Notes: generated from the letters alone by a model not told the origin. DNA of 64,000 nt from Betaproteobacteria bacterium (GCA_032125995.1 JAQBBQ010000267.1:3201-67200); one strand, 5' to 3'; counted from the first letter of the stretch, positions 2,485-40,942 are shown. Program-made: numbers and translations.

Positions 2485-2498
2485 TGTCCCCTCCGCGC

Positions 2499-3302
2499 TT
2501 AGGCCGCCTTAAAGGCGCGCCGGCCGCGCTCCCCCCCGAAAAAACTCTGGACGAAACGGTGCTCTACCGAGCGTACTTCGTCGACTGAGCCGCAGGCGAT
2601 TATATGCTGGTCGGCGAGCACTGCGATCCGGTCAGTGAGGTCGTGTAGCGTGTCGAGATCGTGCGTCACCATCAGGACCGCGAACCGGTACTCGGTTCGC
2701 AGCCGCTTGATGAGGCGCACGAAGGCCTCCGAGCGGTCGGGGTCGAGCCCCGCAGTCGGCTCATCCAGAATCAGTAGTTCGGGCGAGAGCGCCATTGCGC
2801 GTGCGAGCGAGACGCGCTTGACCATGCCGCCCGAGAGATTCGCCGGCATCAGATCCGCGTGCTGCGGTTCGAGTTCGACCTGCGCGAGTTTCGCATGCAC
2901 GATCGCGTGGATCGCGTCCTCGTCCAGGCCACCGCGTTCGCGCAATGGAAAGGCGACATTCTGAAAAACCGTGAGCGCGGAATACAGGGCACCGTTCTGG
3001 AACAGCATGCCCATGCGTTCGCGCGTGGCGCGTATCTGCGCGTAGCCCGCGCCGTCCCAGGACACTCCGAACACCCGCACGACGCCCGCACTCGGCCGCT
3101 TCAGACCGAGGATCACGCGCACCAGTTGGGTCTTCCCGCTACCGGACCCGCCGACCAGCGTCATCACTTCGCCCGCGTGCACGTCAAAATCCAGATCGCG
3201 GTGCAGCACGAAGTTCGACACCTTGTTGAGGAGCTTGCGAATCTCGACCACATTCTCGCCGCTGTTCTCGGCGTCGTGCTCGACAGGGGTCTTAGCCGAC
3301 AT
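2499..3302 (-). CDS. ABC transporter ATP-binding protein (MlaF-like)
   Basis: Walker A GGSGSGKT, ABC signature LSGGMVKRVSLARA and Walker B LLILDEPTAGLD. Confidence 0.9.
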   Translation of the reverse strand: MSAKTPVEHDAENSGENVVEIRKLLNKVSNFVLHRDLDFDVHAGEVMTLVGGSGSGKTQLVRVILGLKRPSAGVVRVFGVSWDGAGYAQIRATRERMGMLFQNGALYSALTVFQNVAFPLRERGGLDEDAIHAIVHAKLAQVELEPQHADLMPANLSGGMVKRVSLARAMALSPELLILDEPTAGLDPDRSEAFVRLIKRLRTEYRFAVLMVTHDLDTLHDLTDRIAVLADQHIIACGSVDEVRSVEHRFVQSFFGGERGRRAFKAA

Positions 3303-4452
3303 TACGCAACAGTATCGCGAAAACGGAGTCGAGCAGGATTACGCAGGTGATCGACGCGACCACCGAACGCGTCACACCCGCTGCCAGGCTATCGGTGTTC
3401 GGCTGCACGCGCAGGCCGTAGTGGCAGGCGACGAACGCGACGGCGAACCCGAACGCGACCGACTTGCCAATTCCGATCCAGAAATTGACCACCTCGACCG
3501 CGCGCGGCAGCGCGACGAGAAACGCCGCCGGCGCGATATCCAGCGTGACGTCCGCGATCATCATGCCACCCGCGAGTGCTGCAATGTCGGTGCAGAACGT
3601 GACCATCGGCAGCGCGATCGCCAGGCCCAGGACCTTCGGCAGCACCAGTCGCGCGGTCACTGAAATGCCCATCACGGAAAGCGCCTCGATCTCCTCGGTG
3701 ACCCGCATGACGCCGAGTTGCGCGGTCATCGCCGAGCCCGAGCGACCCGCCGCGATGATCGAGGCAAGTAATGGCCCGAGTTCGCGCACCACGCCGATGC
3801 CGACGATGTTGATGACGAGCAGGTCGGCGCCGTAGCGCTTCAGCTGCAACGCCGAGAGATAGGTCAGCACGACCCCGATCAGGAACCCGACCAGCATGGT
3901 CACCGGCAACGCCGAGACGCCTGCGCGGTATACATTCGCCGACAGTTCGCGCAGCGGAAATTCGCGCCAGCGCCGCGTTACCCGCGCAAGATCGAGCACC
4001 AGTTGACCGAGCAGGGCCGTGGCATCCCGGATGTGGTGCCAGAAGTTGATGCCGCCCTCGCCCACGGCGACGATTGCGGCCAGCGGGTCGAGGCGCCGCG
4101 CCGGCCGACCGACGAGCAGGCCCTGGCTGGCCTGATTGAGCAGGTCGCGGTAACTGGGCGCCACGTCGATGCGCTCGGCCGAGCGGAGCGCACGCACCAG
4201 CCAGACCGCGCCCGCGTCGTCGAGTGCGGTGATTCCCGTCAGATCCCAGCGCAGCGTGTGGGCCGGTCGGCGCTCGAGGTCCGCGGCCAGCCGCGCCAAC
4301 GCGTAGCGCCGCGCCGACAGCGCGCCGAAGGTCCAGTCGCCGTGCACCCGGATCGCCGCCCCGGGCTCGGCGCCCGACAGCTCCCCGATCTCGAGCGCGG
4401 CTTGGGCAGCGGACATGGCGGACGATGTTACCAGCGCCGTGACGGTAGCCAC
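3292..4452 (-). CDS. MlaE-family ABC permease with N-terminal STAS-like extension
   Basis: 386 aa. The C-terminal ~260 aa is a polytopic MlaE-type permease (…TAQLGVMRVTEEIEALSVMGI…). The N-terminal ~115 aa is soluble and resembles a STAS/anti-sigma-antagonist (MlaB-like) module. Overlaps the ATPase gene by 11 nt. Confidence 0.8.
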   Translation of the reverse strand: MATVTALVTSSAMSAAQAALEIGELSGAEPGAAIRVHGDWTFGALSARRYALARLAADLERRPAHTLRWDLTGITALDDAGAVWLVRALRSAERIDVAPSYRDLLNQASQGLLVGRPARRLDPLAAIVAVGEGGINFWHHIRDATALLGQLVLDLARVTRRWREFPLRELSANVYRAGVSALPVTMLVGFLIGVVLTYLSALQLKRYGADLLVINIVGIGVVRELGPLLASIIAAGRSGSAMTAQLGVMRVTEEIEALSVMGISVTARLVLPKVLGLAIALPMVTFCTDIAALAGGMMIADVTLDIAPAAFLVALPRAVEVVNFWIGIGKSVAFGFAVAFVACHYGLRVQPNTDSLAAGVTRSVVASITCVILLDSVFAILLRNVG

Positions 4453-12307: not shown

Positions 12308-13384
<1,077 letters not shown>

Positions 13385-13415
13385 GCGCGCCTCGGCACCT
13401 CGGCGCTAGGTGCAC

Positions 13416-14342
13416 ATGGAGCACTCGCCGCCGCCGTTCTTCAAACGTGGTCCGGCGCCGGTAGTACGGCTCGCGTTCTTCGCCTCTCTGTCCTTTGCGC
13501 TGCTCGTTCTCGACGCGCGCTTCGGCTACGTGGAGGGCCTGCGCCATGTCTTGGCGCTCGCCGCCTATCCCTTCCAACAGGCCGCCACCGCGCCCGTCGC
13601 CATCGCGCGGCGCGTGGCCGAATTTTTCGTCAGCCAACAACAGCTGCAGGCCGAAAACTCGACCCTGCGCGCGGAACTGCTCGACACCGCGCGCGACGCG
13701 CAGCGTTACGAGACCGCGGCGTCCGAGCTTGCCGAGCTCCGTCGCGTGAACGAAATGCGTGTGCGGCTCAAGCGCCGCACGATCCCGGCCGAAGTGCTCT
13801 ACAGCGGCCGTGATCCCTACGATTACAAGGTCATCCTCGACAAAGGCAGCCAGCATGCGATCGCCGCCGGCAGCCCGGTGCTCGACGCCGACGGCATTGT
13901 CGGGCAGGTGACGCGCGTGCACGCGCTGGTTTCCGAGGTGACCTTGCTCACCGACAAGGCGCAGGCGATCCCGGTTCAGGTCACGCGCAACGGTCTGCGT
14001 GCGGTCGCATTCGGCGCAGGCGCCTCGGGCACGATGGAGCTGCGCTTTCTCCCGGCCAACGCGGACGTGCGCAACGGCGACCGCTTGGTCACGTCAGGGA
14101 TCGACGGCACCTATCCGTCCGGTCTCGCGGTTGCAGAGGTCGTTCACGTCGAGCGCGACGCCGCGCAGGCGTTCGCACGGGTGATCTGCAAGCCCGTCGC
14201 GGGCGTCGATCGCAGCCGTTACGTGCTGGTGCTTGTGGGCGGCGAAGCGTTGCCGGCCTATCCGACGGCAGACACGGAACATGGCAGTACGCGGAGCGGG
14301 TCGCGGCGGGCCCGCCGAGGGAGCAAACGTGGAACCAAATAA
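13416..14342 (+). CDS. mreC: rod shape-determining protein MreC
   Basis: MEHSPPPFFKRGPAPVVRLAFFASL... resembles the MreC N-terminus. ATG 13416 preferred over the in-frame GTG at 13410. Confidence 0.85.
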   Translation: MEHSPPPFFKRGPAPVVRLAFFASLSFALLVLDARFGYVEGLRHVLALAAYPFQQAATAPVAIARRVAEFFVSQQQLQAENSTLRAELLDTARDAQRYETAASELAELRRVNEMRVRLKRRTIPAEVLYSGRDPYDYKVILDKGSQHAIAAGSPVLDADGIVGQVTRVHALVSEVTLLTDKAQAIPVQVTRNGLRAVAFGAGASGTMELRFLPANADVRNGDRLVTSGIDGTYPSGLAVAEVVHVERDAAQAFARVICKPVAGVDRSRYVLVLVGGEALPAYPTADTEHGSTRSGSRRARRGSKRGTK

Positions 14343-14838
14343 GCCGCAGCACATCCTGCTGCCGGTACGCGTGAGCACCATCATCGTCTCATTCGCGGCC
14401 GCGCTACTGCTGATGTTCCTGCCGTGGAACGACATGCGCCTGGTACCGGACTTCGTCGCCGTGGTGCTCGTATTCTGGTGCGTCCACCAGCCCCGGCGCG
14501 TCGGCCTCGGCGTTGGTTGGCTCATCGGGTTGGTGGCCGACGCCGGCAACGGCGTCCTTCTCGGGCAGCACGCGTTGGCGTACGCGCTGCTTGCATTCTT
14601 CGCGATCACGCTTTCGCGCCGGATCCTCTGGTTCAACCCCGGGTATCAGGCGCTGCACATCGCGCCGCTGCTCGTATTCGCGGAGGCGGTCGTGATGCTG
14701 GTGCGCCTCGCGACCGGCGCACCGCTGCCGGGTTGGTCGATCTTGGTCTCGCCCTTGGTCGGTGCGGCGCTGTGGCCTCTCGTTTCATGGCTGCTCTTGC
14801 TCCCGCAGCGTCGCGCACTCGAGGCGGGGTCGTTTTAG
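14329..14838 (+). CDS. mreD: rod shape-determining protein MreD
   Basis: GTG start at 14329 overlaps the mreC end. Polytopic membrane protein (…LLMFLPWNDMRLVPDFVAVVLVFW…) in the canonical mreBCD position. The start is uncertain. Confidence 0.75.
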   Translation: MEPNKPQHILLPVRVSTIIVSFAAALLLMFLPWNDMRLVPDFVAVVLVFWCVHQPRRVGLGVGWLIGLVADAGNGVLLGQHALAYALLAFFAITLSRRILWFNPGYQALHIAPLLVFAEAVVMLVRLATGAPLPGWSILVSPLVGAALWPLVSWLLLLPQRRALEAGSF

Positions 14839-14852
14839 CACGCTTCCGACGC

Positions 14853-16766
14853 ATGGCCGCGATCACGGAAATCAGAAATACGGAACGCGACCTGCGCGCC
14901 TTCCGCGCCCGCGTTCTGGTTGCCATCGCATTCGTGCTCGCGGCATTCGGCGCACTGGGCGCGCGTTTTGTATGGCTACAGCTCGTGCAGTATGAGTACT
15001 ACCACACGCGCGCCGAAGACAACCGGATCGCGATTGTTCCGCTGCCGCCGCACCGCGGCCTGATTCTCGATCGTAACGGGCGCGTGCTCGCGCGTAACTA
15101 TTCCGCGTACACGCTTGAGATCGCCCCGCGCAAAGTTGACGATCTCGAGCGCACCATAGAAGCGCTCTCCACGCTCGTCGAAATCGGACCGCGGGATCGC
15201 AGCCGCTTCGGCAAGCACGTCGCCGAGGCGCGCAACGCCGAGAGCCTGCCGATCCGCACGCGATTGTCGGACGAAGAGGTCGCGCGCTTCGCAGTGAACC
15301 GTTACCGGTTCCCCGGTGTCGAGATTAAGGCGCGGTTGTTCCGTCAGTACCCGTTCGGCAGCACGGCGTCTCACGTGCTCGGCTATATCGGACGCATCAA
15401 CGAGCGCGATCTTGTGCAGCTCAATGCGCTCGGCGTCGAGGCAAACTATCGCGGTACCGAGTACATCGGCAAGCGCGGTGTTGAGGTGAGCTACCAGCAG
15501 TCGCTCCACGGCGTTACGGGCCTCGAACAGGTTGAGATCGACGCCGCCGGTCGCGGGATTCGCACCCTGTCGCGTACCGCGGCCCACCCCGGACGCAACG
15601 TGACGCTAACCCTCGACATCGGACTGCAGCAGGTCGCCGAGGCCGCGTTCAGCGGACGGCGCGGCGCGCTCGTCGCGCTCGATCCGGCAAACGGTGCGGT
15701 GCTCGCATTCGTGTCCGTGCCGGCTTACGACCCGAATCTTTTCGTCGACGGCATCGACGTACAAAGCTGGAAGGCGTTGATTACGTCGGCAGACCGGCCG
15801 CTCAACAACCGTGCGATCGCCGGCCTGTATCCGCCGGGCTCGACGTTCAAGCCATTCATGGCGCTCGCGGCACTCGAACTCGGCAAACGCACTCGCGAGA
15901 GCACGATTCAGGACCCTGGCTACTTTGCGTTTGGCGGGCGCCGGTTCCGCGACTCGCGGCTGGGTGGCCATGGCACGGTGGATCTGCGCAAGTCGCTGGT
16001 CGTGTCGTCCGACGTCTACTACTACCAGCTTGCGCACGACTTGGGCATCGTGGCGATCGCCGGCTTCATGCAGCAGTTTGGTTTCGGCGCACGCACGGGC
16101 ATTGATCTCGACGGCGAGGCGACGGGCGTTCTACCGTCGCCGCAATGGAAAAAGCAGCGTTTTCGGCGCCGGGAACAGCAACATTGGTACGCGGGGGAGA
16201 CGATTTCGGTCGGTATCGGCCAGGGCTATAACGCGTATACGCCACTACAGCTTGCGGCCGCGACTGCGGCGCTTGCGAACGGCGGCGCGCTGTATCGGCC
16301 GCACGTGGTGTCGAATATCGATGATCCTCGGTCCGGCGCGCGCGAGACGGTCACACCCCATCTGATCCGTCGGGTTGCCGTAAAGCCAGCGCATGTTGCC
16401 TTCGTGCGTGAGGCGATGGCCGGGGTAAACAGCGAGGGCACCGCTGCGGGTGCGTTTGCCGATGCGCAGTACACGAGCGCTGGAAAAACCGGGACCGCGC
16501 AGGTCGTTGGCATCAAGCAGAACGAGAAATACGACGCCAGCAAGCTCGACGAGCGCTTGCGTGATCACTCGCTGTTCATCGCGTTCGCGCCGATGACGAG
16601 TCCCAAAATCGCGCTCGCAGTGGTGGTCGAAAACGGCGGTTTCGGATCACGCGCCGCGGCGCCGATCGCGCGCATCGTGCTCGACTATTATCTCCTCGGC
16701 AAACGACCGGACGCGGTCGGCGCGCCGGCGCAGAAAGCGGGCAAGCTGCCTGCCGGGCGTCTCTGA
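14853..16766 (+). CDS. mrdA: penicillin-binding protein 2 (elongasome transpeptidase)
   Basis: Start at MAAITEIRNTERDLRAFR. Carries the SxxK motif (GSTFKPF), SxN-like (SSD) and KTG (GKTGTAQ). The ORF-track frame is artefactually extended upstream. Confidence 0.9.
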   Translation: MAAITEIRNTERDLRAFRARVLVAIAFVLAAFGALGARFVWLQLVQYEYYHTRAEDNRIAIVPLPPHRGLILDRNGRVLARNYSAYTLEIAPRKVDDLERTIEALSTLVEIGPRDRSRFGKHVAEARNAESLPIRTRLSDEEVARFAVNRYRFPGVEIKARLFRQYPFGSTASHVLGYIGRINERDLVQLNALGVEANYRGTEYIGKRGVEVSYQQSLHGVTGLEQVEIDAAGRGIRTLSRTAAHPGRNVTLTLDIGLQQVAEAAFSGRRGALVALDPANGAVLAFVSVPAYDPNLFVDGIDVQSWKALITSADRPLNNRAIAGLYPPGSTFKPFMALAALELGKRTRESTIQDPGYFAFGGRRFRDSRLGGHGTVDLRKSLVVSSDVYYYQLAHDLGIVAIAGFMQQFGFGARTGIDLDGEATGVLPSPQWKKQRFRRREQQHWYAGETISVGIGQGYNAYTPLQLAAATAALANGGALYRPHVVSNIDDPRSGARETVTPHLIRRVAVKPAHVAFVREAMAGVNSEGTAAGAFADAQYTSAGKTGTAQVVGIKQNEKYDASKLDERLRDHSLFIAFAPMTSPKIALAVVVENGGFGSRAAAPIARIVLDYYLLGKRPDAVGAPAQKAGKLPAGRL

Positions 16767-17879
16767 GTGGAACTCACGTTCAGCACGATTCGGCGTCTCG
16801 CGCGCGCAAGCGTGGACAGCATTGACGCCACGCTGCTGACCGTCGCGCTATTGCTTGCCGCGCTCGGCGTCGCCACGCTGTACTCAGCAAGCGACGAAAG
16901 CCCGGCGCGTGTCATTGGGCAGCTACGGCATCTCGCGGTCGCCCTCTTCGCGATGTGGCTGATCGCGCGCGTGCCGCCGCAACTGCTCATGCGCTTTGCG
17001 GTTCCGGCGTACGTCGTTGGCGTGCTGCTATTGGTCGCCGTCGCCCTGTTCGGCGACGTCGTAAACGGCGCGCGGCGTTGGTTGAGCCTGGGTGTAATGC
17101 GATTTCAGCCCTCGGAGATGATGAAGATCGCGATGCCATTGATGCTCGCGTGGTATTTTCACCGCGAGGAGGAAGACCTGCGGCGACGCGCATTTGTGGT
17201 CGCCGGTCTCCTCGTCGCGATTCCGGCGGTGCTCATTGCGCGTCAGCCCGATCTCGGCACTGCGCTGCTCGTCGCGGCGGCTGGTTTCTACGTCATCTTT
17301 TTCGCCGGCCTGCGCTGGAAGTCGCTGGGTACGCTGACGGCAATCGCCCTCTTGAGTCTCGCGCCAATCTGGGGATTACTCCACGATTACCAGCGCCGAC
17401 GCATCCTCACCCTGCTCGATCCCACACAGGATCCACTCGGTGCGGGTTACCACATCATCCAGTCGACGATTGCGATCGGCTCGGGTGGCCTGTCCGGCAA
17501 AGGCTGGCTGAATGGCTCGCAGTCGCATCTCGAGTTCATTCCCGAGCGCCACACCGATTTCATCTTTGCGGTGTATTCAGAGGAGTTCGGTTTCATCGGC
17601 AGCTGCGTCCTGTTGTTGCTCTATGTGCTGCTGATCGCGCGCGGTCTGGTGATCGCAATGCAGGCGACGAACTGCTTTTCGCGTCTGCTGGCGAGCGCGA
17701 TCAGCCTGATGTTTTTCACCTATGCGTTCGTCAATATGGGCATGGTGTCTGGCGTCCTGCCGGTCGTCGGCGTGCCCTTGCCGTTTCTGTCCTATGGCGG
17801 CACCGCGTTGCTGACCTTGTTCGTCGCCATCGGCGTGCTGATGAGCGTTCACAAGGACCGCAAGCTCATCAGGACCTGA
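16767..17879 (+). CDS. rodA: peptidoglycan glycosyltransferase RodA (SEDS family)
   Basis: 370 aa, with a GTG start immediately after the mrdA stop. SEDS-type polytopic sequence (…FQPSEMMKIAMPLMLAWYF…, …LPFLSYGGTALL…). Confidence 0.9.
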   Translation: MELTFSTIRRLARASVDSIDATLLTVALLLAALGVATLYSASDESPARVIGQLRHLAVALFAMWLIARVPPQLLMRFAVPAYVVGVLLLVAVALFGDVVNGARRWLSLGVMRFQPSEMMKIAMPLMLAWYFHREEEDLRRRAFVVAGLLVAIPAVLIARQPDLGTALLVAAAGFYVIFFAGLRWKSLGTLTAIALLSLAPIWGLLHDYQRRRILTLLDPTQDPLGAGYHIIQSTIAIGSGGLSGKGWLNGSQSHLEFIPERHTDFIFAVYSEEFGFIGSCVLLLLYVLLIARGLVIAMQATNCFSRLLASAISLMFFTYAFVNMGMVSGVLPVVGVPLPFLSYGGTALLTLFVAIGVLMSVHKDRKLIRT

Positions 17880-17914
17880 GCGCCCGACCGCTGCGGAGGG
17901 TATATTGCGGCGCG

Positions 17915-18010
17915 TCATAGATATGAAACAGATTCCCGCATTATGAAATAGCGGCTGCATAAGCTGTTGTAAATGCTTGTTTTCAATTCCATCAGGTTCT
18001 CAAGACTAGA
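17915..18010 (+). promoter_or_regulatory. AT-rich aceA upstream region with two TATGAAA direct repeats 20 bp apart
   Basis: TATGAAA occurs at 17922-17928 and 17942-17948, and the extended matches ATATGAAACAG / TTATGAAATAG share 9 of 11 positions. The local A+T content stands out against the GC-rich window. No function is demonstrated. Confidence 0.3.
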
Positions 18011-18121
18011 TTGTTGCTGCGCGCCATCGGCGTCGGTTACTGTGGCCCATCCAGCCTGCAACGGCCTGCGTCCTTTGCCAGTCGGGCACTTCGCCATCCA
18101 GCCAACCGAAAGGAAGACTTC

Positions 18122-19432
<1,311 letters not shown>

Positions 19433-19436
19433 TGCA

Positions 19437-21239
19437 ATGAGCGCGCCGTCGCCCCGCCCTGCGCCCGTCGCGCCGCTCTCACCCGGGGTGGCCGCACGGG
19501 CGGAGACGGCCGAGGCGATCGCCCGCCTCATCCTCTCCGGTTTCGACCGGCACTACCGGTTGTTTCGCGCCGCCGCGCAGCGCGCAAAGACATTGTTCGA
19601 GTGCGCCGACTGGCGTTCGATGGCCGCGCTCGCGCGCGAGCGGATCCAGCTCTATGACCGGCGCGTCGCCGAGTCGGTCGATGCAGTACTTGGCGCCTTC
19701 CCGCAGGCCGAGACGGACGAATCGTTGTGGCCCGCGATCAAGCTCGCCACCATCGGTCTGCTGCCAGAGCATCGGCAGCCCGAGTGCGCGGAAACGTTTT
19801 ACAACTCGGTAGCCTGCCAAGTGCTGCACCGCCGCTACTACCGCAACGAGTTCATTTTCTGGCGCCCCGCGGTGGCCACCGAGCACCTTGAGGGCGACGC
19901 GCCGACCTATCGCTGCTATTACCCACTACAAAAAGGCCTGCGTGCGACGCTTGCCGAGATCGCCACCAGCTTCAGTCTGGCCAATCCGTTCGAGGACCTC
20001 CGGCGCGATTCACGCAACGTCCTGCGGGCGATGCGCACCGCCTTCCCCCGGCCCACGCGTGCACGTCCGAGCCTGCAGATTCAAGTGCTCAATGCGCTCT
20101 TTTTTCGCAACAAGGCGGCTTATATCATCGGCAAGATCATCAACGGACACCGCGAAATTCCATTCGCCGTCCCCATCCTGCAGAACGAGAAGCGCGAACT
20201 CTACCTAGACGCCGTACTGCTCGATGCCGACCAGCTGCAAGTCCTGTTTTCCTTCTCACGTGCGTATTTCCTCGTCGACATGGAGGTGCCCGCGGCCTAC
20301 GTCTCGTTCTTGCGCACCCTGATGCCGAGGAAGCCGCGCGCCGAGATGTACATGGCGGTGGGACTGCACAAGCAGGGCAAGACGCTTTTTTATCGCGACC
20401 TGCACTATCATCTGAAGCACTCGTCGGACAATTTCGTCATCGCCCCGGGCATCAAGGGAATGGTGATGCTGGTGTTCACCCTGCCGTCTTTCCCCTACGT
20501 GTTCAAGATCATCCGCGACCACTTCGCGCCGCCAAAGGACATCGACCGGCAGACCGTCAAGGACAAGTACCACCTCGTGAAGATGCACGATCGCGTCGGC
20601 CGGATGGCGGACACGCTGGAATACTCGCTGGTCGCGCTCCCCCTTGATCGCTTCGACCCGGCGCTGGTCGCCGAGTTGAAAGCCGAAGCCGGCTCGAGCA
20701 TCGAGATCGAGGGCGACAAAGTCGTCATCGGACACATGTACATCGAGCGACGCATGCAGCCGCTCAACCTGTACCTCGACGAGGCCGCCGCCGAAGGCGA
20801 CCTGCCGCGCACGCGGCATGCGCTGCTCGAATACGGCAACGCGATCAAGGAACTCGCCGGCGCAGGGATCTTCCCGGGCGACATGCTGCTGAAGAATTTC
20901 GGCGTCACGCGGCACGAGCGTGTCGTGTTCTACGACTACGACGAAATTGCGCCGCTCACGGAGTGTAATTTCCGCCACATTCCGCCCGCGCGCAGTTGGG
21001 AGGACGAAATGTCCGCCGAGCCCTACTATTCGGTGGGTCCGAGCGACGTGTTTCCGGAGCAGTTCGCGCATTTCCTCGTCGCCGATCCGAAGTCGCGCCG
21101 TGTCTTCCTCGGTTACCACGCCGAGCTGACCGATCCCGCGTTCTGGCAGAGCCGCCAGGCGCAACTGCGGGCCGGCGTCCAGGCCGACGTCTTTCCGTAC
21201 CCCGAGACGGTGCGCTTCCCGCGCACCCCGCGCCGCTAG
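19437..21239 (+). CDS. aceK: isocitrate dehydrogenase kinase/phosphatase
   Basis: 600 aa with full-length AceK-like sequence (…FDRHYRLFR…, …YDYDEI…). Starts 4 nt after the aceA stop. Confidence 0.92.
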   Translation: MSAPSPRPAPVAPLSPGVAARAETAEAIARLILSGFDRHYRLFRAAAQRAKTLFECADWRSMAALARERIQLYDRRVAESVDAVLGAFPQAETDESLWPAIKLATIGLLPEHRQPECAETFYNSVACQVLHRRYYRNEFIFWRPAVATEHLEGDAPTYRCYYPLQKGLRATLAEIATSFSLANPFEDLRRDSRNVLRAMRTAFPRPTRARPSLQIQVLNALFFRNKAAYIIGKIINGHREIPFAVPILQNEKRELYLDAVLLDADQLQVLFSFSRAYFLVDMEVPAAYVSFLRTLMPRKPRAEMYMAVGLHKQGKTLFYRDLHYHLKHSSDNFVIAPGIKGMVMLVFTLPSFPYVFKIIRDHFAPPKDIDRQTVKDKYHLVKMHDRVGRMADTLEYSLVALPLDRFDPALVAELKAEAGSSIEIEGDKVVIGHMYIERRMQPLNLYLDEAAAEGDLPRTRHALLEYGNAIKELAGAGIFPGDMLLKNFGVTRHERVVFYDYDEIAPLTECNFRHIPPARSWEDEMSAEPYYSVGPSDVFPEQFAHFLVADPKSRRVFLGYHAELTDPAFWQSRQAQLRAGVQADVFPYPETVRFPRTPRR

Positions 21240-23682: not shown

Positions 23683-24726
23683 ATGGATCTCACCGAACTT
23701 CTCGCCTTCTGCGTCAAGAACAAGGCGTCCGACCTGCACCTCTCCTCGGGACTTCCACCCATGATCCGCGTGCACGGCGACGTTCGGCGCATCAACGTGC
23801 CGGCGCTCGAGCACAAAGAAGTGCACTCGATGATCTACGACATCATGAGCGACGGGCAACGCAAGTTCTATGAAGAGAATCTCGAGTGCGACTTTTCCTT
23901 CGCGGTGCCCAATCTCGCGCGCTTTCGGGTCAACGCCTTCGTCCAGCAGCGCGGCGCGGCCGCCGTGTTGCGGACGATTCCGACCAAGATCATGAGCCTC
24001 GAGGAACTGAATTGCCCAAAGATCTTCGCCGAGATCTCTGATCAGCCGCGCGGCATCGTGCTGGTCACCGGACCCACCGGTTCGGGGAAAAGCACCACGC
24101 TCGCCGCGATGGTGAACTACAAAAACGAGAATGAGTACGGTCACATTCTCACCATCGAGGATCCGATCGAATTCGTCCACGAGTCGAAGAAGTGCCTAAT
24201 CAATCAGCGTGAAGTCGGGCCGCATACCCTGTCGTTTTCCAATGCGCTGCGCAGCGCCCTGCGCGAGGACCCGGACGTGATTCTGGTCGGTGAGATGCGC
24301 GACTTGGAGACCATCCGGCTCGCCCTGTCGGGCGCCGAGACCGGTCACTTGGTGTTCGGCACCCTGCACACGTCGTCTGCCGCGAAGACGATCGACCGGA
24401 TCGTCGACGTGTTTCCCGCGGCCGAAAAGGAGATGGTGCGCTCGATGCTGTCGGAGTCGATCCGCGCGGTCATCTCGCAGACGCTGTGCAAGACCAAGGA
24501 CGGCTCAGGGCGCGTGGCGGCGCACGAGGTCATGATCGGCACCCCGGCGATCCGCAACCTGATCCGCGAGAACAAGATCGCGCAGATGTATTCTTCGATC
24601 CAGACCGGCCGCCAGGTGGGCATGCAGACGCTAGACCAGAACCTGCAGGAACTCGTGGCACGCAATAGCATCTCGATCGGCGAGGCCCGCGGCAAGGCGG
24701 CGAACAAGGATACGTTCGCGGGCTGA
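23683..24726 (+). CDS. pilT: type IV pilus retraction ATPase PilT
   Basis: 347 aa with Walker A GPTGSGKST and the AIRNLIRE motif typical of PilT. RBS GGAGG. Confidence 0.95.
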   Translation: MDLTELLAFCVKNKASDLHLSSGLPPMIRVHGDVRRINVPALEHKEVHSMIYDIMSDGQRKFYEENLECDFSFAVPNLARFRVNAFVQQRGAAAVLRTIPTKIMSLEELNCPKIFAEISDQPRGIVLVTGPTGSGKSTTLAAMVNYKNENEYGHILTIEDPIEFVHESKKCLINQREVGPHTLSFSNALRSALREDPDVILVGEMRDLETIRLALSGAETGHLVFGTLHTSSAAKTIDRIVDVFPAAEKEMVRSMLSESIRAVISQTLCKTKDGSGRVAAHEVMIGTPAIRNLIRENKIAQMYSSIQTGRQVGMQTLDQNLQELVARNSISIGEARGKAANKDTFAG

Positions 24727-24785: not shown

Positions 24786-25922
24786 ATGGAACGAGAACAA
24801 GCCACCAAATTCATGTACGACCTGCTGCGCGCGTTAACCGCGAAGAAGGGATCCGACCTGTTCATCACGGCGAACTTCCCGCCCGCGATGAAGATCGACG
24901 GCAAGATGACGCCAGTATCGCAGCAGGCGCTCGGCGCGCAGCACACCGCGATGCTCGCGCGCTCGATCATGAACGACAAGCAGGCCGCCGAGTTCGAGGC
25001 GACCAAGGAGTGTAACTTCGCGATCAGCCCCGCCACCATCGGCCGCTTCCGCGTCAATACCTTCATCCAGCAAGGCGTCGTCGGCATGGTGCTGCGGGTA
25101 ATCACCACGACGATCCCGAATTTTGAGGAACTGAACCTGCCGCCGGTTCTCAAGGACGTCGCGATGACCAAGCGTGGGCTCGTCATCTTCGTCGGCGGCA
25201 CGGGCTCGGGAAAATCGACCTCGCTCGCCGCGATGGTCGGCTACCGCAACGAAAACTCGTACGGGCACATCATCACGATCGAGGATCCCGTCGAGTACGT
25301 CCATCCGCACAAGAACTGCATCATCACCCAGCGCGAAGTCGGGGTCGACACCGACTCGTGGGCATCCGCGCTGAAGAACACGCTGCGCCAGGCGCCCGAC
25401 GTGATTCTGATCGGTGAAATCCGCGATCGCGAAGTGATGGAGCACGCGATTGCGTTCGCCGAGACCGGTCACCTGTGCCTGGGTACGCTGCACGCCAACA
25501 ATTCGAACCAGGCGCTCGACCGGATGATCAACTTCTTCCCCGAGGAGCGCCGCGACCAGCTCCTGATGGACCTGTCGCTAAACCTCAAGGGCGTGATCTC
25601 GCAGCGCCTGCTGCCGGTCAAAGAGGGTAAGGGACGCGCCGCCGCGGTCGAGGTGCTGCTCAACTCGCCGTTGATTTCGGACCTCATCTTCAAGGGCGAC
25701 GTGCACGAGATCAAGGAGATCATGAAAAAGTCGCGCGAGCTCGGCATGCAGACCTTCGACCAGGCGCTGTTCGATCTCTATGAACAGGGCCGCATCGGCT
25801 ACGAGGACGCGTTGCGCTTCGCCGACTCGACCAACGAGGTGCGTCTGCAGATCAAGCTGCACGGCAAGGAGGCGAAGGACAAGGACATGTCGAAGGGCAT
25901 CGAGCACCTCGACATCGTGTAG
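24786..25922 (+). CDS. pilU: PilT/PilU-family type IV pilus ATPase (PilU-like)
   Basis: 378 aa with Walker A GGTGSGKST. Paralogous to the preceding pilT, with a PilU-type C-terminal extension. RBS AGGAG. Confidence 0.88.
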   Translation: MEREQATKFMYDLLRALTAKKGSDLFITANFPPAMKIDGKMTPVSQQALGAQHTAMLARSIMNDKQAAEFEATKECNFAISPATIGRFRVNTFIQQGVVGMVLRVITTTIPNFEELNLPPVLKDVAMTKRGLVIFVGGTGSGKSTSLAAMVGYRNENSYGHIITIEDPVEYVHPHKNCIITQREVGVDTDSWASALKNTLRQAPDVILIGEIRDREVMEHAIAFAETGHLCLGTLHANNSNQALDRMINFFPEERRDQLLMDLSLNLKGVISQRLLPVKEGKGRAAAVEVLLNSPLISDLIFKGDVHEIKEIMKKSRELGMQTFDQALFDLYEQGRIGYEDALRFADSTNEVRLQIKLHGKEAKDKDMSKGIEHLDIV

Positions 25923-34684: not shown

Positions 34685-34825
34685 CGTGCTTTTCGAGTTC
34701 TCGTCATCAGTTGGGTCAGGGCTTACACTCTGGCGTGATCATACCCCCGCGCGAGGGCTGGAATTCGCGTTGCAACATTGGCGTCACGATGGTTTCATAG
34801 AATCGCGCATCCCGACCCCGCGCAC

Positions 34826-35518
34826 ATGCCAGCCAACATTCTCGTCGTCGAAGACGAACCCGCGATCCAGGAACTGATCGCGGTTAACCTGGAACATGCG
34901 GGGCACCACGTTATCCGCGCGCATGACGCCGAAACGGCCCTCGACATCGTGCGCAAGGCGCTGCCGGACCTGCTGCTGATCGACTGGATGCTGCCCGGTA
35001 CCTCGGGCGTCGCGCTTGCGCGCGCGCTGCGCAAAAAAGCGCGCACCAAACAAGTTCCGATCATCATGCTGACCGCGCGCGCGACCGAGCAAGACAAGGT
35101 CCTCGGCCTCGACGCGGGTGCCGACGACTACGTCACCAAGCCATTCTCGCCGCGCGAGCTGATCGCTCGCATCAACGCCGTCCTGCGCCGTCGCACACCG
35201 CAGACGACCGATGAAACGGTCGACAGCGCGGGCCTACGGCTCGAGCCCTCGACGCGGCGCGTCTTCGGCAACCACAGGCCACTCGCACTGGGGCCAACCG
35301 AATTCCGGCTGCTGCATTTCCTCATGACCCATGCCGAGCGCGTTCATTCGCGCGCGCAGTTGCTCGACCAGGTCTGGGGCGACCATGTGGTTGTCGAAGA
35401 GCGCACCGTCGACGTGCACATACGCCGCCTGCGCAAGGCGCTCGAGCCGACGGGCCATGACGGGTTGGTCGAGACGGTGCGCGGCGCGGGCTATCGATTC
35501 TCGTCGCAGCCTTTGTGA
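34826..35518 (+). CDS. phoB: phosphate regulon response regulator PhoB
   Basis: Start at MPANILVVEDEPAIQELI. Receiver domain plus winged-helix OmpR-type C-terminus (…VDVHIRRLRKAL…RGAGYRF). Confidence 0.92.
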   Translation: MPANILVVEDEPAIQELIAVNLEHAGHHVIRAHDAETALDIVRKALPDLLLIDWMLPGTSGVALARALRKKARTKQVPIIMLTARATEQDKVLGLDAGADDYVTKPFSPRELIARINAVLRRRTPQTTDETVDSAGLRLEPSTRRVFGNHRPLALGPTEFRLLHFLMTHAERVHSRAQLLDQVWGDHVVVEERTVDVHIRRLRKALEPTGHDGLVETVRGAGYRFSSQPL

Positions 35519-35536
35519 GAGAATCGCCATCGCGTC

Positions 35537-36856
35537 ATGAATCCGGTCTGGAGCAGCACGATCGGCGTCGCCATCGCTTCGGCAATCGTCGGGCTAATGG
35601 TCGGCGCATTTGCCGGCGCGACCTGGGCGTGGGTTGCGGTGGCCGGCGTCTTGGGGCTGCGGCTCGTCTACCATGCCCTACACCTTGCAGGGCTGTCCAA
35701 CTGGCTGCGGAAACCGCAGTTGCGCACGCTGCCAAGTGGACACGGCGTCTGGGAAGAGGTGCTCGCGAAGCTCCACCATACGCTCAAGAACCGCGAAGGC
35801 GAGCGCGATCATCTCGCCCGCGCCCTATTGCGCTTTCGCGCCGCAGCGCAAGCGCTTCCCGACGGCGTCGTCATCCTGGACCGAGACGACCATATCGAGT
35901 GGGCGAACGCCACAGCGCGTCGCCAGCTGGGCGTCGACGCGCGCCGCGACGCCGGGCGCCCGGTCGTCAACCTGGTACGTCATCCGGACTTTGTCGCCTA
36001 CCTTCGCCGCTCCGACTACGGCGCGCCGCTGGTGCTGCACTCGACGCGGTCCGACGCCGTGCTTTCCGTGCGCATCATCGAATTTGGCGCCGATCGAAAG
36101 CTGCTGAGTTCGCGCGACATCACCATCGAGGAGCGGCTCGACACGATGCGGCGTGACTTCGTCGCCAACGTGTCGCACGAACTGAAAACACCGATCACGG
36201 TACTTTCCGGCTTCGTCGAAACGCTCGCCGACGAGCAGGTCGAACTGACGCCTGCGCAGCGCAAGCGCTTCCTCGGCCTCATGACCGAGCAGGGACAGCG
36301 CATGCGGCGCCTGATCGAGGATTTGCTCACGCTTTCCGCGCTCGAATCGAGCCAGGCGCCGAACGACGAGCAGGAAATCAGCATGCGTCCGTTTTGCGAG
36401 CGACTGCTCGAGGAGGCGCGCGCCCTGTCCGCAGGCCGACACCGGATCGAGCTCGACCCGCTGCGCGACGCGACGCTCATCGGCAGTGTTGCCGAGTTGA
36501 CGAGCGCGTTTTCCAATCTGGTGTCGAACGCGATCCGCTATACGCCGGACGGCGGCACCGTGCGCATCAGGTGGCACATCGAGGACGGGTGCGGCGTGTT
36601 CAGCGTCACCGATTCCGGGATCGGCATCGATTCGCGCCACATTCCCCGCCTCACCGAGCGTTTCTATCGCGTCGACCAAGGGCGGTCGCGGGAGACGGGC
36701 GGTACCGGCCTCGGCTTGGCGATCGTCAAGCATGTGCTCACGCGACACGAAGCGACCCTCGAGATCGCGAGTGAAACCGGGCAAGGCTCGACGTTCAGCG
36801 CGGTGTTCCCCGAGCAGCGCCTGGTGCGCATCGACACGACGCGCGCCGCAGCCTAG
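35537..36856 (+). CDS. phoR: phosphate regulon sensor histidine kinase PhoR
   Basis: 439 aa with an N-terminal TM hairpin, a PAS-like segment, the H-box FVANVSHELKTPITV, and N/G boxes (NAIRYTP, DSGIGI, GGTGLGLAIV). Confidence 0.9.
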   Translation: MNPVWSSTIGVAIASAIVGLMVGAFAGATWAWVAVAGVLGLRLVYHALHLAGLSNWLRKPQLRTLPSGHGVWEEVLAKLHHTLKNREGERDHLARALLRFRAAAQALPDGVVILDRDDHIEWANATARRQLGVDARRDAGRPVVNLVRHPDFVAYLRRSDYGAPLVLHSTRSDAVLSVRIIEFGADRKLLSSRDITIEERLDTMRRDFVANVSHELKTPITVLSGFVETLADEQVELTPAQRKRFLGLMTEQGQRMRRLIEDLLTLSALESSQAPNDEQEISMRPFCERLLEEARALSAGRHRIELDPLRDATLIGSVAELTSAFSNLVSNAIRYTPDGGTVRIRWHIEDGCGVFSVTDSGIGIDSRHIPRLTERFYRVDQGRSRETGGTGLGLAIVKHVLTRHEATLEIASETGQGSTFSAVFPEQRLVRIDTTRAAA

Positions 36857-36904: not shown

Positions 36905-38536
36905 TCAGGCGTCGAGCGTTTCGTAGGCTACGCGCTCAAAGTCGCTGCCCCGCTCGAGCACCTCGTCAAGGCGTACGCGCAGCGCCAACTCCACGTAGAC
37001 CTCGATGATGCGCTTCGGTTTGTACCAGCCGGCGGGCAGGATCAACGACGGCGGCGCGTTTTGCGCGGGGACCCCGGTCAGTAACAACGCCGGCACGTAT
37101 TTTTCGTTCGCCGCATTGACGCCGGCCGGGCGCACCGCGATCGCCGCGGGCAGACCCGGCATGATCTTCAGGCCGGCGTACAGATCGCCTTGGTCGCTGT
37201 TCATGAGCCAGCGCACCTGGGCAAGGAGGAAATTCTTCTCGTCAGACGGACGCACCGCGAGCAGCTGGCCGTGAGCGAAACGTCGCCCCGGCGTATCCGC
37301 CTTGCGCACCATCTTCAGGCCCTGCGCGCTCTGGTCGACGCGCTGCCATAGCTCCAGCGCAAAGCCCTGCAGGGTGACGTATTTATCGTCGCTGCGCGTG
37401 CTGACGCGGCCAAGGGTCGCGAGCTCGTCTTGCTCCTGATGCGTAAGCGCGCTGCTCGTCCGCGGCTGGCGGAACGCGCGGTCCGAAATGAAATAGTGAA
37501 TGCCTGCGATGCTGTTGCAGATCTGCGCAACGCCCGATACGCGCTGCCGCTCGGGGACGCGTGTCGCACGCATCTGGCACCACTGGCGATACAGAAACAC
37601 GAGCAGTTGTTCGCACGACGGCTGTACGCAGTCCTCGCCCAAGGCAAGGCGTGCCGGCGATTCTCCTTTGCGCAGCAACCCGACGCGGTTACGCAGGCTC
37701 TTGGCAAGCCGATCGGTATCGAGAAATCGAATCGAATCGCCCTGCGCGGCTGTCGGGTCAACGCGTTCCGGCACCACCTCGCCCGCGAGGTCGACGGCGA
37801 GCGGCGGTACATCCTTCCACGCGGGCGGCGTACGCCCAATCTCGACCTTGCTCGCCCAGCGCTCGAGCAGGTAGGTCACAAACGTGAGCTGGCGTTGCGT
37901 GAGCTCGTTCGGGTTGCATAGCCCGGTAAGCAGCGCGCGGACGTAGGCGATGCGCGGCGAGGTGTCGTGCACGTCGCGATTCAGATAATCCTTGATCAAC
38001 GCCTCGGCAACATCGAGCTCCTCGGCCCGCGCATAGGCTTCGTGCAGCGCGCGCCATTCAGGCGCCGGCACCTGCCGGTAGGCACGATAGTGATGGAACA
38101 TTTTCAGCCCGGAGTAGGCAAGCGCGCGCTGCGCTACGAGCGCACCCTGCACACGGATCGCGGCGTCGCCCATTGCCGCGGCTTCCAAGCAGCGCAGGTA
38201 GCCCAGCCGCATCTGTTCCCACAGCGCAAGCGTCTCCTGGAACACCGCAACCTCCGGTTCGGACATCGGCAACGCCCGATTCGTGAACCGCTTGGCCTGC
38301 TCGATCTGCACGAAGTGGACGGCCTCTCGAATCGCCTCCAGCGCGCCGAGGCGGGCCATTGCGCTTGTCGAAAACCGGTTGAACTCGCGGATCTGGGAAA
38401 GCAGTTGCTGCTGTGCCGCGGCGACGTTTGCGAGCGGCACGTTCTCGACCCACGCCTTGCAGGTCTCGGCGTCGATGAACTCCGGCGACGCATCGGGCGC
38501 GAGAACCGGAAGCGGGAACGCAGAAAAGTCCGTCAT
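36905..38536 (-). CDS. hypothetical protein with candidate C-terminal PilZ (c-di-GMP-binding) domain
   Basis: 543 aa. I recognise no family for residues 1-370. Residues 377-381 are RVSTR (RxxxR) and residues 401-406 are DQSAQG (DxSxxG), followed by beta-rich …LLAVRP…LAQVRWLMNSDQGDLYAGLKIM, as in PilZ barrels. Confidence 0.6.
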   Translation of the reverse strand: MTDFSAFPLPVLAPDASPEFIDAETCKAWVENVPLANVAAAQQQLLSQIREFNRFSTSAMARLGALEAIREAVHFVQIEQAKRFTNRALPMSEPEVAVFQETLALWEQMRLGYLRCLEAAAMGDAAIRVQGALVAQRALAYSGLKMFHHYRAYRQVPAPEWRALHEAYARAEELDVAEALIKDYLNRDVHDTSPRIAYVRALLTGLCNPNELTQRQLTFVTYLLERWASKVEIGRTPPAWKDVPPLAVDLAGEVVPERVDPTAAQGDSIRFLDTDRLAKSLRNRVGLLRKGESPARLALGEDCVQPSCEQLLVFLYRQWCQMRATRVPERQRVSGVAQICNSIAGIHYFISDRAFRQPRTSSALTHQEQDELATLGRVSTRSDDKYVTLQGFALELWQRVDQSAQGLKMVRKADTPGRRFAHGQLLAVRPSDEKNFLLAQVRWLMNSDQGDLYAGLKIMPGLPAAIAVRPAGVNAANEKYVPALLLTGVPAQNAPPSLILPAGWYKPKRIIEVYVELALRVRLDEVLERGSDFERVAYETLDA

Positions 38537-38546
38537 GACAGCACCC

Positions 38547-38954
38547 TCAGGCTAGAAGTTTCGTCAACCGCGCGCCGAGCTGCGCATCGGTCACGTCGGG
38601 CCGCGTCGCCCCCGCGCGCTGCGGCGCGCCCCAGGCCGGCTCCGGAAAGTGCGGGTCGTCGCGAAAACGCGGGATGACGTGCCAGTGCATGTGCGGCACC
38701 TGGTTGCCGAAGCTTGCAAGGTTCATTTTGTCCGGCCGGTACAGTTCACGCAGCGCGCGCTCGGTGGCAAAAACCACGTTCATGAGCCGGTCGCGCTCGC
38801 CCGGCGCCAGTTCGGTCATCTCGACGACGTGGCGTCCCAGCACCACCCGCAAAAAACCCGGATAGCCATCGACCTCTGCACGCACCACCCGACACAGGTC
38901 GTCCCGCCACAACACGGCGCCGCCGTCTCCGTCGCACAGGGCGCAGCGCAACAT
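38547..38954 (-). CDS. HIT-family (histidine triad) protein
   Basis: 135 aa with the histidine-triad motif VPHMHWHVIPR. Confidence 0.85.
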   Translation of the reverse strand: MLRCALCDGDGGAVLWRDDLCRVVRAEVDGYPGFLRVVLGRHVVEMTELAPGERDRLMNVVFATERALRELYRPDKMNLASFGNQVPHMHWHVIPRFRDDPHFPEPAWGAPQRAGATRPDVTDAQLGARLTKLLA

Positions 38955-38971: not shown

Positions 38972-39151
38972 TCAGAGCAGCACGCGCTCGGTTCCGCCGG
39001 GGTTGACCTTGGCCACACAGGCGTCGAGCCAGTTCCCACCGAGCAGTTGGCGCACCATTTCAACCACAATATAGTCGGCCTGTGCCCCGATGTCATCCGC
39101 TAACCGGGGCGATCCCGGCGCGCAGGAGGGGCAAAACGTGACAACGTTCAC
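38972..39151 (-). CDS. possible small CxxC protein (59 aa), unassigned
   Basis: A GTG start at 39151 gives MNVVTFCPSCAPGSPRLADDIGAQADYIVVEMVRQLLGGNWLDACVAKVNPGGTERVLL. It fills the gap between the membrane-protein gene and the HIT gene on the same strand. No family recognised, the start is uncertain, and the upstream part of the ORF-track frame overlaps the neighbouring gene. Confidence 0.3.
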   Translation of the reverse strand: MNVVTFCPSCAPGSPRLADDIGAQADYIVVEMVRQLLGGNWLDACVAKVNPGGTERVLL

Positions 39152-39194: not shown

Positions 39195-39989
39195 TCAGTG
39201 CAGTGTTTCCGGCGTTGCCGTATCCGCGCCGAAGACGTCGCGATAGCTCGCGTAGAAGCTTGCAAACAGGATCGGCAACAAGACGAGGACGAGCGGAAAA
39301 ACGAGCGACACCACCGAGGCGCGTCCGGTGCCCTGCAGAAGCAAGGCGATCGCACCCAGCAGGAGGAACGGCAGCACGAGCGTTAGCGCCGTGGTGGCAA
39401 TGCCATAGGCGATGAACGCGCGCCAGTTGATGAGACAGGCGAACAGGCTGAAGAACAGCGCCTGCGCTGCACCGATGCCGTGCCAGGCCGCAAGCACCGG
39501 CGCGAACCAGAAGCTCATGATCACCGGCACGTACAGGCCCGCGGCGCATAGCAGCGCAAGCATGAATGCGTCCGATCGCACCGTCGCCTCGTCCGGGCGT
39601 TCGCCGACCAGCAGCCAACTCGCAAGCGCCCCGCCGTCGGCCAGCGCGGTGGCCGCGAGCAGCAGCGCGAGCGAAACCAAATAGATTCCGCCGAGCGTGA
39701 GTTGGACATCGACGCGCCTGCGGAAGCCCTCGAACAGCTGTCCGAGTTCGATCGGACCGCCGCGCTCGGCGGCACGGCTCGCCGCCATGAAGCCGACCGA
39801 AAACGGTGGCACGAGCAACGACGCGGCAACCACGCCAATGAAGGGCAGCACCGAGACCAGCGTCATCAACACCCAGTAGGAAAACACCAGCAGGAGCCAG
39901 CCGAGCGGCGAGACACGGAACAGTCGCCACCCCTGCAGGAGCCAGCCCACACCGCGACTCACCGATACGATCCGCGCCTGTGTCGTCAT
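39195..39989 (-). CDS. polytopic inner-membrane protein of unknown function (resembles the 'BPSS1780-family membrane protein' label, from memory)
   Basis: 264 aa with several predicted TM helices. The start overlaps the thrB stop (ATGA). Confidence 0.65.
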   Translation of the reverse strand: MTTQARIVSVSRGVGWLLQGWRLFRVSPLGWLLLVFSYWVLMTLVSVLPFIGVVAASLLVPPFSVGFMAASRAAERGGPIELGQLFEGFRRRVDVQLTLGGIYLVSLALLLAATALADGGALASWLLVGERPDEATVRSDAFMLALLCAAGLYVPVIMSFWFAPVLAAWHGIGAAQALFFSLFACLINWRAFIAYGIATTALTLVLPFLLLGAIALLLQGTGRASVVSLVFPLVLVLLPILFASFYASYRDVFGADTATPETLH

Positions 39990-40942
39990 GCGATCGGCCA
40001 GGACGCCGACGTCTCGGCGGCGCGGAGTTCGAGGATCGCCCGGAAGTGCTCTGGGTCGTGCGCATGCACGAGCGCACCGGGCCGCGGCAAATGAAGATCG
40101 CGCAAACGCGAGAGCCAGAAGCGCAGCGCGGCGGCACGCAGCAGCACCGGCCAGGCGCCGCGCTCAAGCGCGCTGAACGGCCGCACGGCGGCATAGGCCT
40201 CGAGCAACGCCCGCGTCTTCGCGGCGTCGAGCCGTCGATCCCGCGCGGGGTCGAGCAGGCACCAGTCGTTTGCGCACACGGCGCAATCGTAGAGGAAGCA
40301 GTCGACCCCTGCGAAATAGAAGTCGATCACCCCGCTGAGCGCGCCATCCTCGAACAACGCGTTGTCACGGAACAGATCGGCATGCACCGGACCGCGCGGC
40401 AGGTCAGGAAAACGGGCCGGCGCCTGGAACCGCAGCTCCTCGTCGAGCAATTCGGACTGCGCTTGGTCGAGGAACGGGCGCAACTCGCGCGCCGTGGCGC
40501 GCCACCATTGCGGGCCCCTCGGGTTCTCGAGCTGTGCATCATAGGTTTGTCCCGCAAGGTGCATGCGCGCGAGCAACGACCCGAGCGCCGCGCAATGCGC
40601 CGGCGCCGGCGCCTCGATCGAGGTGCCCGGAAGGCGCGTCACGAGCGCGGCGGGCTTGCCGTTCAGCTCGGACAGAAAGCTGCCCGACAGGTCCGCGATC
40701 GGCGCCGGGCATGGGATGCCGTGTCGCGCAAGATGCGACATCAGGTTGAGGTAGTACGGCAAGGCCTGTGCAGGCAAGCGCTCGAACAACGTCAGCACGT
40801 ATCGCCCCTGCATGGTCGTGACGAAGAAGTTGCTGTTCTCGATGCCCCTGGCGATCGGCTCGAGTGCCACGAGCCGACCGACCGAATACGCGCGCAGCCA
40901 TGCGTCGAGTTGCGCTTCCGAAATGGTGGTGTAGACCGACAT
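39986..40942 (-). CDS. thrB: homoserine kinase, Pseudomonas/Burkholderia type (APH-fold ThrB)
   Basis: 318 aa, MSVYTTISEAQLDAWLRAYSVGRLVALEPIARGIENSNFFVTT… and …HADLFRDNALF. Confidence 0.88.
   Translation of the reverse strand: MSVYTTISEAQLDAWLRAYSVGRLVALEPIARGIENSNFFVTTMQGRYVLTLFERLPAQALPYYLNLMSHLARHGIPCPAPIADLSGSFLSELNGKPAALVTRLPGTSIEAPAPAHCAALGSLLARMHLAGQTYDAQLENPRGPQWWRATARELRPFLDQAQSELLDEELRFQAPARFPDLPRGPVHADLFRDNALFEDGALSGVIDFYFAGVDCFLYDCAVCANDWCLLDPARDRRLDAAKTRALLEAYAAVRPFSALERGAWPVLLRAAALRFWLSRLRDLHLPRPGALVHAHDPEHFRAILELRAAETSASWPIA

Follow-up and report, generated by a model that had tools for sequence, protein, structure and literature searches.

A probable FimW-family cyclic di-GMP receptor with an insertion-split, divergent PilZ barrel in an uncultured Burkholderiales bacterium

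The stretch of DNA analyzed here, a 64,000-nucleotide window from a Betaproteobacteria bacterium assembly (GCA_032125995.1 JAQBBQ010000267.1:3201-67200), contains a minus-strand open reading frame (ORF) at positions 36905..38536, which we refer to as the fimW-like gene. Translation confirmed that it encodes 543 amino acids followed by a stop codon, as had been stated in an earlier sequence-only reading. That reading described the product as an orphan outside any named family, composed of a large N-terminal region and a C-terminal PilZ-type module for cyclic di-GMP (c-di-GMP). The window matches contigs from metagenome-assembled genomes of uncultured Burkholderiales. We consider the protein to be best explained as a FimW-family c-di-GMP receptor of an uncultured Burkholderiales bacterium, in which a divergent PilZ barrel is split by an insertion, and we assign this explanation a probability of approximately 0.68.

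The exact sequence of the protein carries precomputed Pfam assignments to FimW_N (PF27104) and FimW_C (PF27125), in this N-to-C order and at E ≤ 1e-5. A search of 5.8 billion proteins, in which 8,000 candidates were scored, returned 969 matches at E ≤ 1e-3. The 120 matches listed are each approximately 535-545 residues long and cover 96-100% of the query, and every homologue among them carries both PF27104 and PF27125. Fragments comprising only the C-terminus have PF27125 alone, whereas longer fragments gain PF27104, and PF27104 was therefore assigned to the N-terminal part. An exhaustive HMMER search against 1.84 billion cluster representatives (50% identity) yielded 2,748 clusters at E ≤ 1e-3, including 364 at E ≤ 1e-30, and almost all of these matches ran end to end. 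Several relatives, including ones 63-64% identical to the window protein, bear the JGI label "cyclic-di-GMP-binding protein", and MDQ5903100.1, to which NCBI gives the same name, aligned in full length with 34% identity over 525 residues (E 5e-87). From these matches and the two domain assignments we conclude that the protein, as judged by homology, is not an orphan but a member of the widespread FimW family of c-di-GMP receptors. The full protein matched nothing in an older Pfam release or in NCBIfam, even at E ≤ 10, because the FimW_N and FimW_C models postdate the Pfam release that was scanned.

FimW, the product of PA4958 of Pseudomonas aeruginosa, is a c-di-GMP effector (PMC10212136, PMC11656802) and is counted among the PilZ-domain proteins in a review (PMC12564702). 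After surface contact, FimW binds c-di-GMP, dimerizes, accumulates at the cell pole, and promotes type IV pilus assembly (PMC10212136; PMC7322531). Its mode of action has been described as unknown, without an identified partner (PMC11656802; PMC6581867). At the family level, the earlier description of the protein as a c-di-GMP effector with an uncharacterized output is thus wrong, as the output of P. aeruginosa FimW is type IV pilus assembly. The window protein is tied to PA4958 through the Pfam family names and the source annotations, not by direct alignment. The clusters of 20 diverse representatives contained metagenomic or Rhodocyclales members and no Pseudomonas sequence, a tblastn search of a plasmid collection gave no match to the protein, and a FimW-type family goes unmentioned in two PilZ survey preprints (including bioRxiv 10.1101/2020.02.11.943704). 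The fimbrial regulator FimW of Salmonella was considered as the origin of the Pfam name and rejected, since the source annotations read cyclic-di-GMP-binding protein.

The fold of the protein was predicted with AlphaFold2 (AF2). In the full-length model, with a predicted local distance difference test score (pLDDT) of 80.6, residues 23-320 form helices with short hairpins, and the region from about 387 to 540 is rich in β-strands. Residues 328-543, modelled from a more diverse alignment, reached a pLDDT of 93.5 and a predicted template modelling score of 0.87. This C-terminal model begins with a strand (335-341), continues with helices at 343-351, 366-375, and 381-390 and with strands at 395-402, 406-411, 425-430, 437-446, 452-458, and 463-470, and ends with five more strands between 481 and 540. 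The sequence-only reading had anticipated both a β-rich segment behind its motifs, which corresponds to the predicted strands at 392-540, and, correctly in substance, a large helical N-terminal domain fused to a PilZ-type module.

Foldseek searches with the C-terminal model returned almost exclusively PilZ proteins as top PDB matches, and the same families were found with the full model; over both models, the top matches MrkH, VCA0042, MotI, PlzA, and the BcsA PilZ domain had probabilities of 0.97-1.00. MrkH was matched with an E value of 4.5e-4 (probability 1.00), the PilZ domain of BcsA with a root-mean-square deviation of 2.8-3.5 Å over 134-140 alignment columns (probability 1.00), and the CeSA PilZ domain 4i86 with a target-normalized template modelling score of 0.56-0.59. 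Further matches were VCA0042/PlzD, MotI, PlzA, the tPilZ protein XCC6012, the P. aeruginosa PilZ domain 4xrn, Alg44, and YcgR; the tPilZ structures were 15-18% identical. Two-barrel PilZ proteins (MrkH, VCA0042, MotI, PlzA) aligned across approximately 185-255 columns, and single PilZ domains of 98-109 residues across 134-138 columns. The predicted fold contains the six- or seven-stranded β-barrel of PilZ domains. We conclude that the C-terminal region, approximately residues 321-543, comprises, according to the models, a divergent barrel of the PilZ type and, behind it, another small β-domain. The latter is predicted at residues 481-540 (36917..37096, minus strand), where the five strands have pLDDT values above 90.

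The barrel lacks the contiguous layout of PilZ domains. R330 and D401, the nearest residues of the RxxxR and DxSxxG motifs treated below, are 70 residues apart and not the usual ~20-30, and helices at 343-391 interrupt the barrel. In the AF2 models, the order of secondary structure is strand 331-341, helices 343-391, and strand 392-402, which places the insertion behind RxxxR and the first strand and ahead of the strand with DxSxxG. We take the predicted barrel to be split between its first two strands by this three-helix insertion of ~50 residues. The proposed first strand comprises residues 331-342 (37511..37546, minus strand); DSSP assigned it to 331-340 in the full model and to 335-341 in the C-terminal model. 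The block 338-347, which includes most of this strand, has a mean pLDDT of 97 in the C-terminal model, from which the N-terminal domain is absent. The putative insertion, delimited on the C-terminal model, covers residues 343-391 (37364..37510, minus strand). Motif conservation, profile alignment, and the Foldseek matches point to residues 392-470 (37127..37363, minus strand) as the rest of the PilZ-like barrel.

According to the sequence-only reading, a contiguous PilZ domain at about residues 370-480 forms its c-di-GMP site from R377xxxR381 and D401xSxxG406. Both strings were found where it had placed them, RVSTR at residues 377-381 (nt 37394-37408) and DQSAQG at 401-406 (37319-37336, minus strand), together spanning nt 37319-37408, and the 19 residues between them correspond to canonical spacing. 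Arginine makes up 9% of the protein, however, and RxxxR occurs four times (from residues 50, 83, 326, and 377) compared with ~4.4 expected. RVSTR alone is therefore uninformative, as the RxxxR count matches the chance expectation. The [DN]xSxxG motif is present once. To a close set of 39 homologues with at least 63% identity we added a diverse set of 121 representatives with 29-59% identity. Within the close set, R377, S403, Q405, G406, R326, and R330 are invariant and R381 is mostly kept, with Ser in four and Lys in one, as would be expected if R377 and R381 belonged to the site. The diverse set gave a different picture: R377 is Arg in 40/121 and R381 in 32/121 representatives, and an RxxxR string 15-36 residues upstream of DxSxxG occurs in 18 of the 121 (15%), its presence being unrelated to that of DxSxxG (odds ratio 1.1, p = 1). 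The structure models add that RVSTR lies between two insertion helices, in a loop (374-386) with a pLDDT below 50 in the full-length model, and that a single strand separates it from DxSxxG, compared with two in canonical PilZ domains. We therefore regard a site built from R377 and R381 as very unlikely.

A different arginine pair is conserved throughout the diverse set. R326 is present in 108/121 and R330 in 103/121 members, and RxxxR stands at 326-330 in 100 of them (83%). Of the second motif, D/N401 is conserved in 109/121 (90%), S403 in 91/121 (75%), and G406 in 107/121 (88%), and the complete [DN]xSxxG in 85/121. Both motifs occur in 81 members, RxxxR only in 19, DxSxxG only in four, and neither in 17; this corresponds to an odds ratio of 18 (Fisher p 1e-7, uncorrected for phylogeny). 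R326/R330 and DxSxxG are conserved and co-varying, and therefore appear to be under selection as a two-part site. In the AF2 models, R326xxxR330 immediately precedes strand 331-341, which is the usual position of the PilZ RxxxR. Thus, the alignments identify R326-V-P-E-R330 (37547..37561, minus strand), rather than R377xxxR381, as the arginine motif of the whole family, and conservation and co-occurrence suggest these arginines as the ones that would contact c-di-GMP. Of the PilZ-type c-di-GMP module proposed from the sequence, the fold and the conserved DxSxxG are retained; the choice of RxxxR is not.

Another group of conserved residues lies close to the second motif. W397 (121/121), R411 (115/121), and E395 (103/121), at residues 395-411 (nt 37304-37354), taken together exceed the classical PilZ motif residues in conservation.

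The relationship to PilZ was weaker at the sequence level. A PF07238 profile search, which the sequence-only reading had suggested, gave no match to the window protein at E ≤ 10, and only one of 59 native C-terminal fragments matched (E 0.023). When residues 343-390 were removed in silico, the distance from R330 to D401 fell to 23 residues, which is canonical. Six of 61 insertion-deleted constructs then matched PF07238, with a best E value of 4.3e-5, and PF07238 was the sole Pfam family matched by more than one insertion-deleted member. Two points limit this test, namely that the insertion-deleted construct of the window protein itself had no PF07238 match and that the deletion boundaries were picked by the analyst. 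The deletion test is thus supportive rather than decisive. In three hhalign comparisons (E 0.0015-0.022, probability 2-17%) with a PilZ profile built from YcgR, FlgZ, and MrkH relatives, DxSxxG fell exactly in register with D-I/L-S-x-x-G, and extended alignments placed R326xxxR330 on the PilZ RxxxR; alignment of the family profile with a single YcgR sequence was uninformative. Searches of PDB sequences with the protein and four family profiles (phmmer, hmmsearch) yielded no PilZ chain, but chance matches to lysozyme and halohydrin dehalogenase. We therefore consider the similarity to PilZ to lie mainly in structure and motifs.

The missing PF07238 match and the large insertion that divides the domain would also suit a degenerate xPilZ domain that does not bind c-di-GMP and serves as a protein-interaction module only, like P. 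aeruginosa PilZ (PA2960) or XCC6012. PilZ relatives without binding activity are frequent (bioRxiv 10.1101/2020.02.11.943704), and 36 of the 121 diverse members lack DxSxxG and 21 lack RxxxR. The window protein, however, retains R326, R330, D401, S403, and G406, the two motifs are kept and co-vary across the family, and the namesake FimW is reported to bind c-di-GMP (PMC10212136, PMC11656802). The insertion itself is compatible with binding: in Leptospira YcgR-GAZ proteins, the PilZ domain is interrupted by an insertion at the same point, behind RxxxR and the first strand, and one of these proteins binds c-di-GMP according to isothermal titration calorimetry by Visnardi et al. (PMC11800159). 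A purely degenerate domain is, in our view, unlikely.

For a FimW-family receptor with a split barrel, we infer the following mode of action. The R326xxxR330 loop and the first strand would be set apart from the second strand with D401xS403xxG406 by the ~50-residue three-helix insertion. As in canonical PilZ domains, c-di-GMP would sit with the R326/R330 loop on one side and the DxSxxG face on the other. Its binding may, judging from FimW of P. aeruginosa, alter the oligomeric state or the localization of the protein. The helical FimW_N domain of ~320 residues would then act on a partner, and the assembly of type IVa pili would be promoted. This predicted, mostly α-helical domain occupies approximately residues 1-320 (37577..38536, minus strand; AF2, PF27104), and Foldseek gave no confident PDB neighbour for it.

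The surroundings of the gene bear on this proposed output. At a distance of 11-13 kb from the fimW-like gene, the plus strand of the window encodes two PilT/PilU-family type IVa pilus ATPases in tandem (23683-24726 and 24786-25922; TIGR01420, 510 and 463 bits). Because of these ATPases, the organism appears to possess the machinery that is under FimW control in Pseudomonas. The fimW-like gene itself stands in other company. Upstream of it and in the same direction lie thrB for homoserine kinase (39986-40942; NF003558, 404 bits), a gene for a BPSS1780-family membrane protein (39195-39989; NF041043, 221 bits), whose start overlaps the thrB stop by 4 nt (39986-39989), and a gene for a HIT-domain protein (38547-38954). 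On the other, downstream side, phoB and phoR (34778-36856) are convergent with it, and ubiE lies there as well. The gene order thus bears out the earlier description of the last gene in a co-directional string that begins with thrB, convergent with phoBR.

The same neighbourhood recurs in 66 related loci from metagenome-assembled genomes (L001-L066). Their order is polA (divergent), thrB, the BPSS1780 gene, a gene for a 1,251-residue protein, the HIT gene, the fimW-like gene, phoR-phoB (convergent), and ubiE; the genes for the 1,251-residue and HIT proteins and phoR-phoB are present in some loci only. The 1,251-residue protein, a large FAD/FeS oxidoreductase, carries the domains DUF3683, FAD_binding_4, FAD-oxidase_C, Fer4, CCG, and DUF3400. 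phoBR is found in 33 of the 66 loci, and where it is missing, the fimW-like gene may lie ~10 nt upstream of ubiE (L027, L033). In loci without the HIT gene, the fimW-like start codon directly adjoins the BPSS1780 stop or overlaps with it (L044, L046, L048, L063), which suggests that the two genes are co-translated in these lineages. No fimX-like gene is adjacent to the fimW-like gene in the window or in the 66 related loci.

This conserved order, the close junction with the BPSS1780 gene, and the missing fimX neighbour raise the question of whether a receptor with the FimW fold might, in Burkholderiales, have an output other than type IV pili, such as the BPSS1780 membrane protein or a membrane or respiratory function, or might bind a different nucleotide. 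The oxidoreductase of the related loci also occurs, in fragmented form, upstream of a distant FimW_N protein (L068:840-5214), which speaks for such an output. Yet the neighbours have housekeeping roles and belong to a backbone conserved on the chromosome, so that their synteny may lack functional meaning; the BPSS1780 gene is missing from two distant loci (L068 and L069), and the window does encode PilT and PilU. We regard a non-pilus output as decidedly unlikely. An equally speculative extension is that a Burkholderiales FimW-type receptor, separated from fimX and sharing translational coupling with its conserved neighbourhood in some lineages, might connect a membrane or respiratory function with c-di-GMP instead of, or besides, pili, and that the split-PilZ architecture, with R377/R381 as a clade-specific second arginine pair in its three-helix insert, could tune ligand stoichiometry or specificity; this, too, we hold to be quite improbable.

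Between the BPSS1780 and HIT genes, the window contains a 59-residue minus-strand ORF (38972-39151) that matches DUF3400 only. In related metagenome-assembled genomes, DUF3400 is the C-terminal tail of the 1,251-residue protein, which is encoded at this very place (L010:1792-5547). The window lineage appears to have lost ~3.7 kb of the oxidoreductase gene and to have retained the DUF3400 tail. At the locus, a scan for promoters and terminators gave no signal above the shuffled background. The remainder of the window is occupied by housekeeping genes, among them mreB and mreC through rodA, followed by isocitrate lyase with the AceK kinase/phosphatase (12341-21239). Near its left end lies an Mla-like ATP-binding cassette (ABC) transporter with MlaE, the ABC ATPase, MlaD, and an auxiliary lipoprotein (935-4452).

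The value of the assignment to the FimW family is mainly corrective, as a protein that appeared to be an orphan from its motifs and the older Pfam release is placed in a family of receptors. If our explanation holds, the arginines worth mutating are R326 and R330 and not R377 and R381. The family alignment offers a starting point for the mechanism of FimW, with a two-part site kept or lost as a unit, the residues W397 and R411, and the conserved insertion. No new kind of system is revealed.

Compared with P. aeruginosa FimW, the window protein has both Pfam domains in identical order and a full length of ~540 residues, its relatives are annotated as cyclic-di-GMP-binding proteins, and type IVa pilus ATPases are present in the genome. 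The two differ in their setting, since the P. aeruginosa gene lies with fimX and the gene described here lies among thrB, BPSS1780, HIT, phoBR, and ubiE genes, and in their host, which is here an uncultured Burkholderiales lineage. With canonical PilZ proteins (YcgR, BcsA, MrkH, VCA0042/PlzD), it shares the β-barrel fold recognized by Foldseek and both conserved motifs, RxxxR in the loop that leads into the first strand and [D/N]xSxxG where the second strand meets the third. It departs from them in the lack of a PF07238 match, in the 70 residues that separate the motifs instead of ~20-30, and in the 320-residue helical N-terminal domain. A second β-domain is also found in two-barrel PilZ proteins, but in the window protein the second barrel comes after the motif-bearing barrel and not before it. 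The split-PilZ architecture is an already known type, represented by YcgR-GAZ and the tetrameric tPilZ XCC6012 (PDB 3RQA/3PH1). By a comparison made at the level of element order rather than residue superposition, these proteins likewise contain an insertion between the RxxxR/first strand and the DxSxxG strand. In contrast to YcgR-GAZ, the insert consists here of three helices instead of a GAF-like domain; in contrast to tPilZ proteins, the window protein is no stand-alone domain, and, unlike XCC6012, it has kept both binding motifs.
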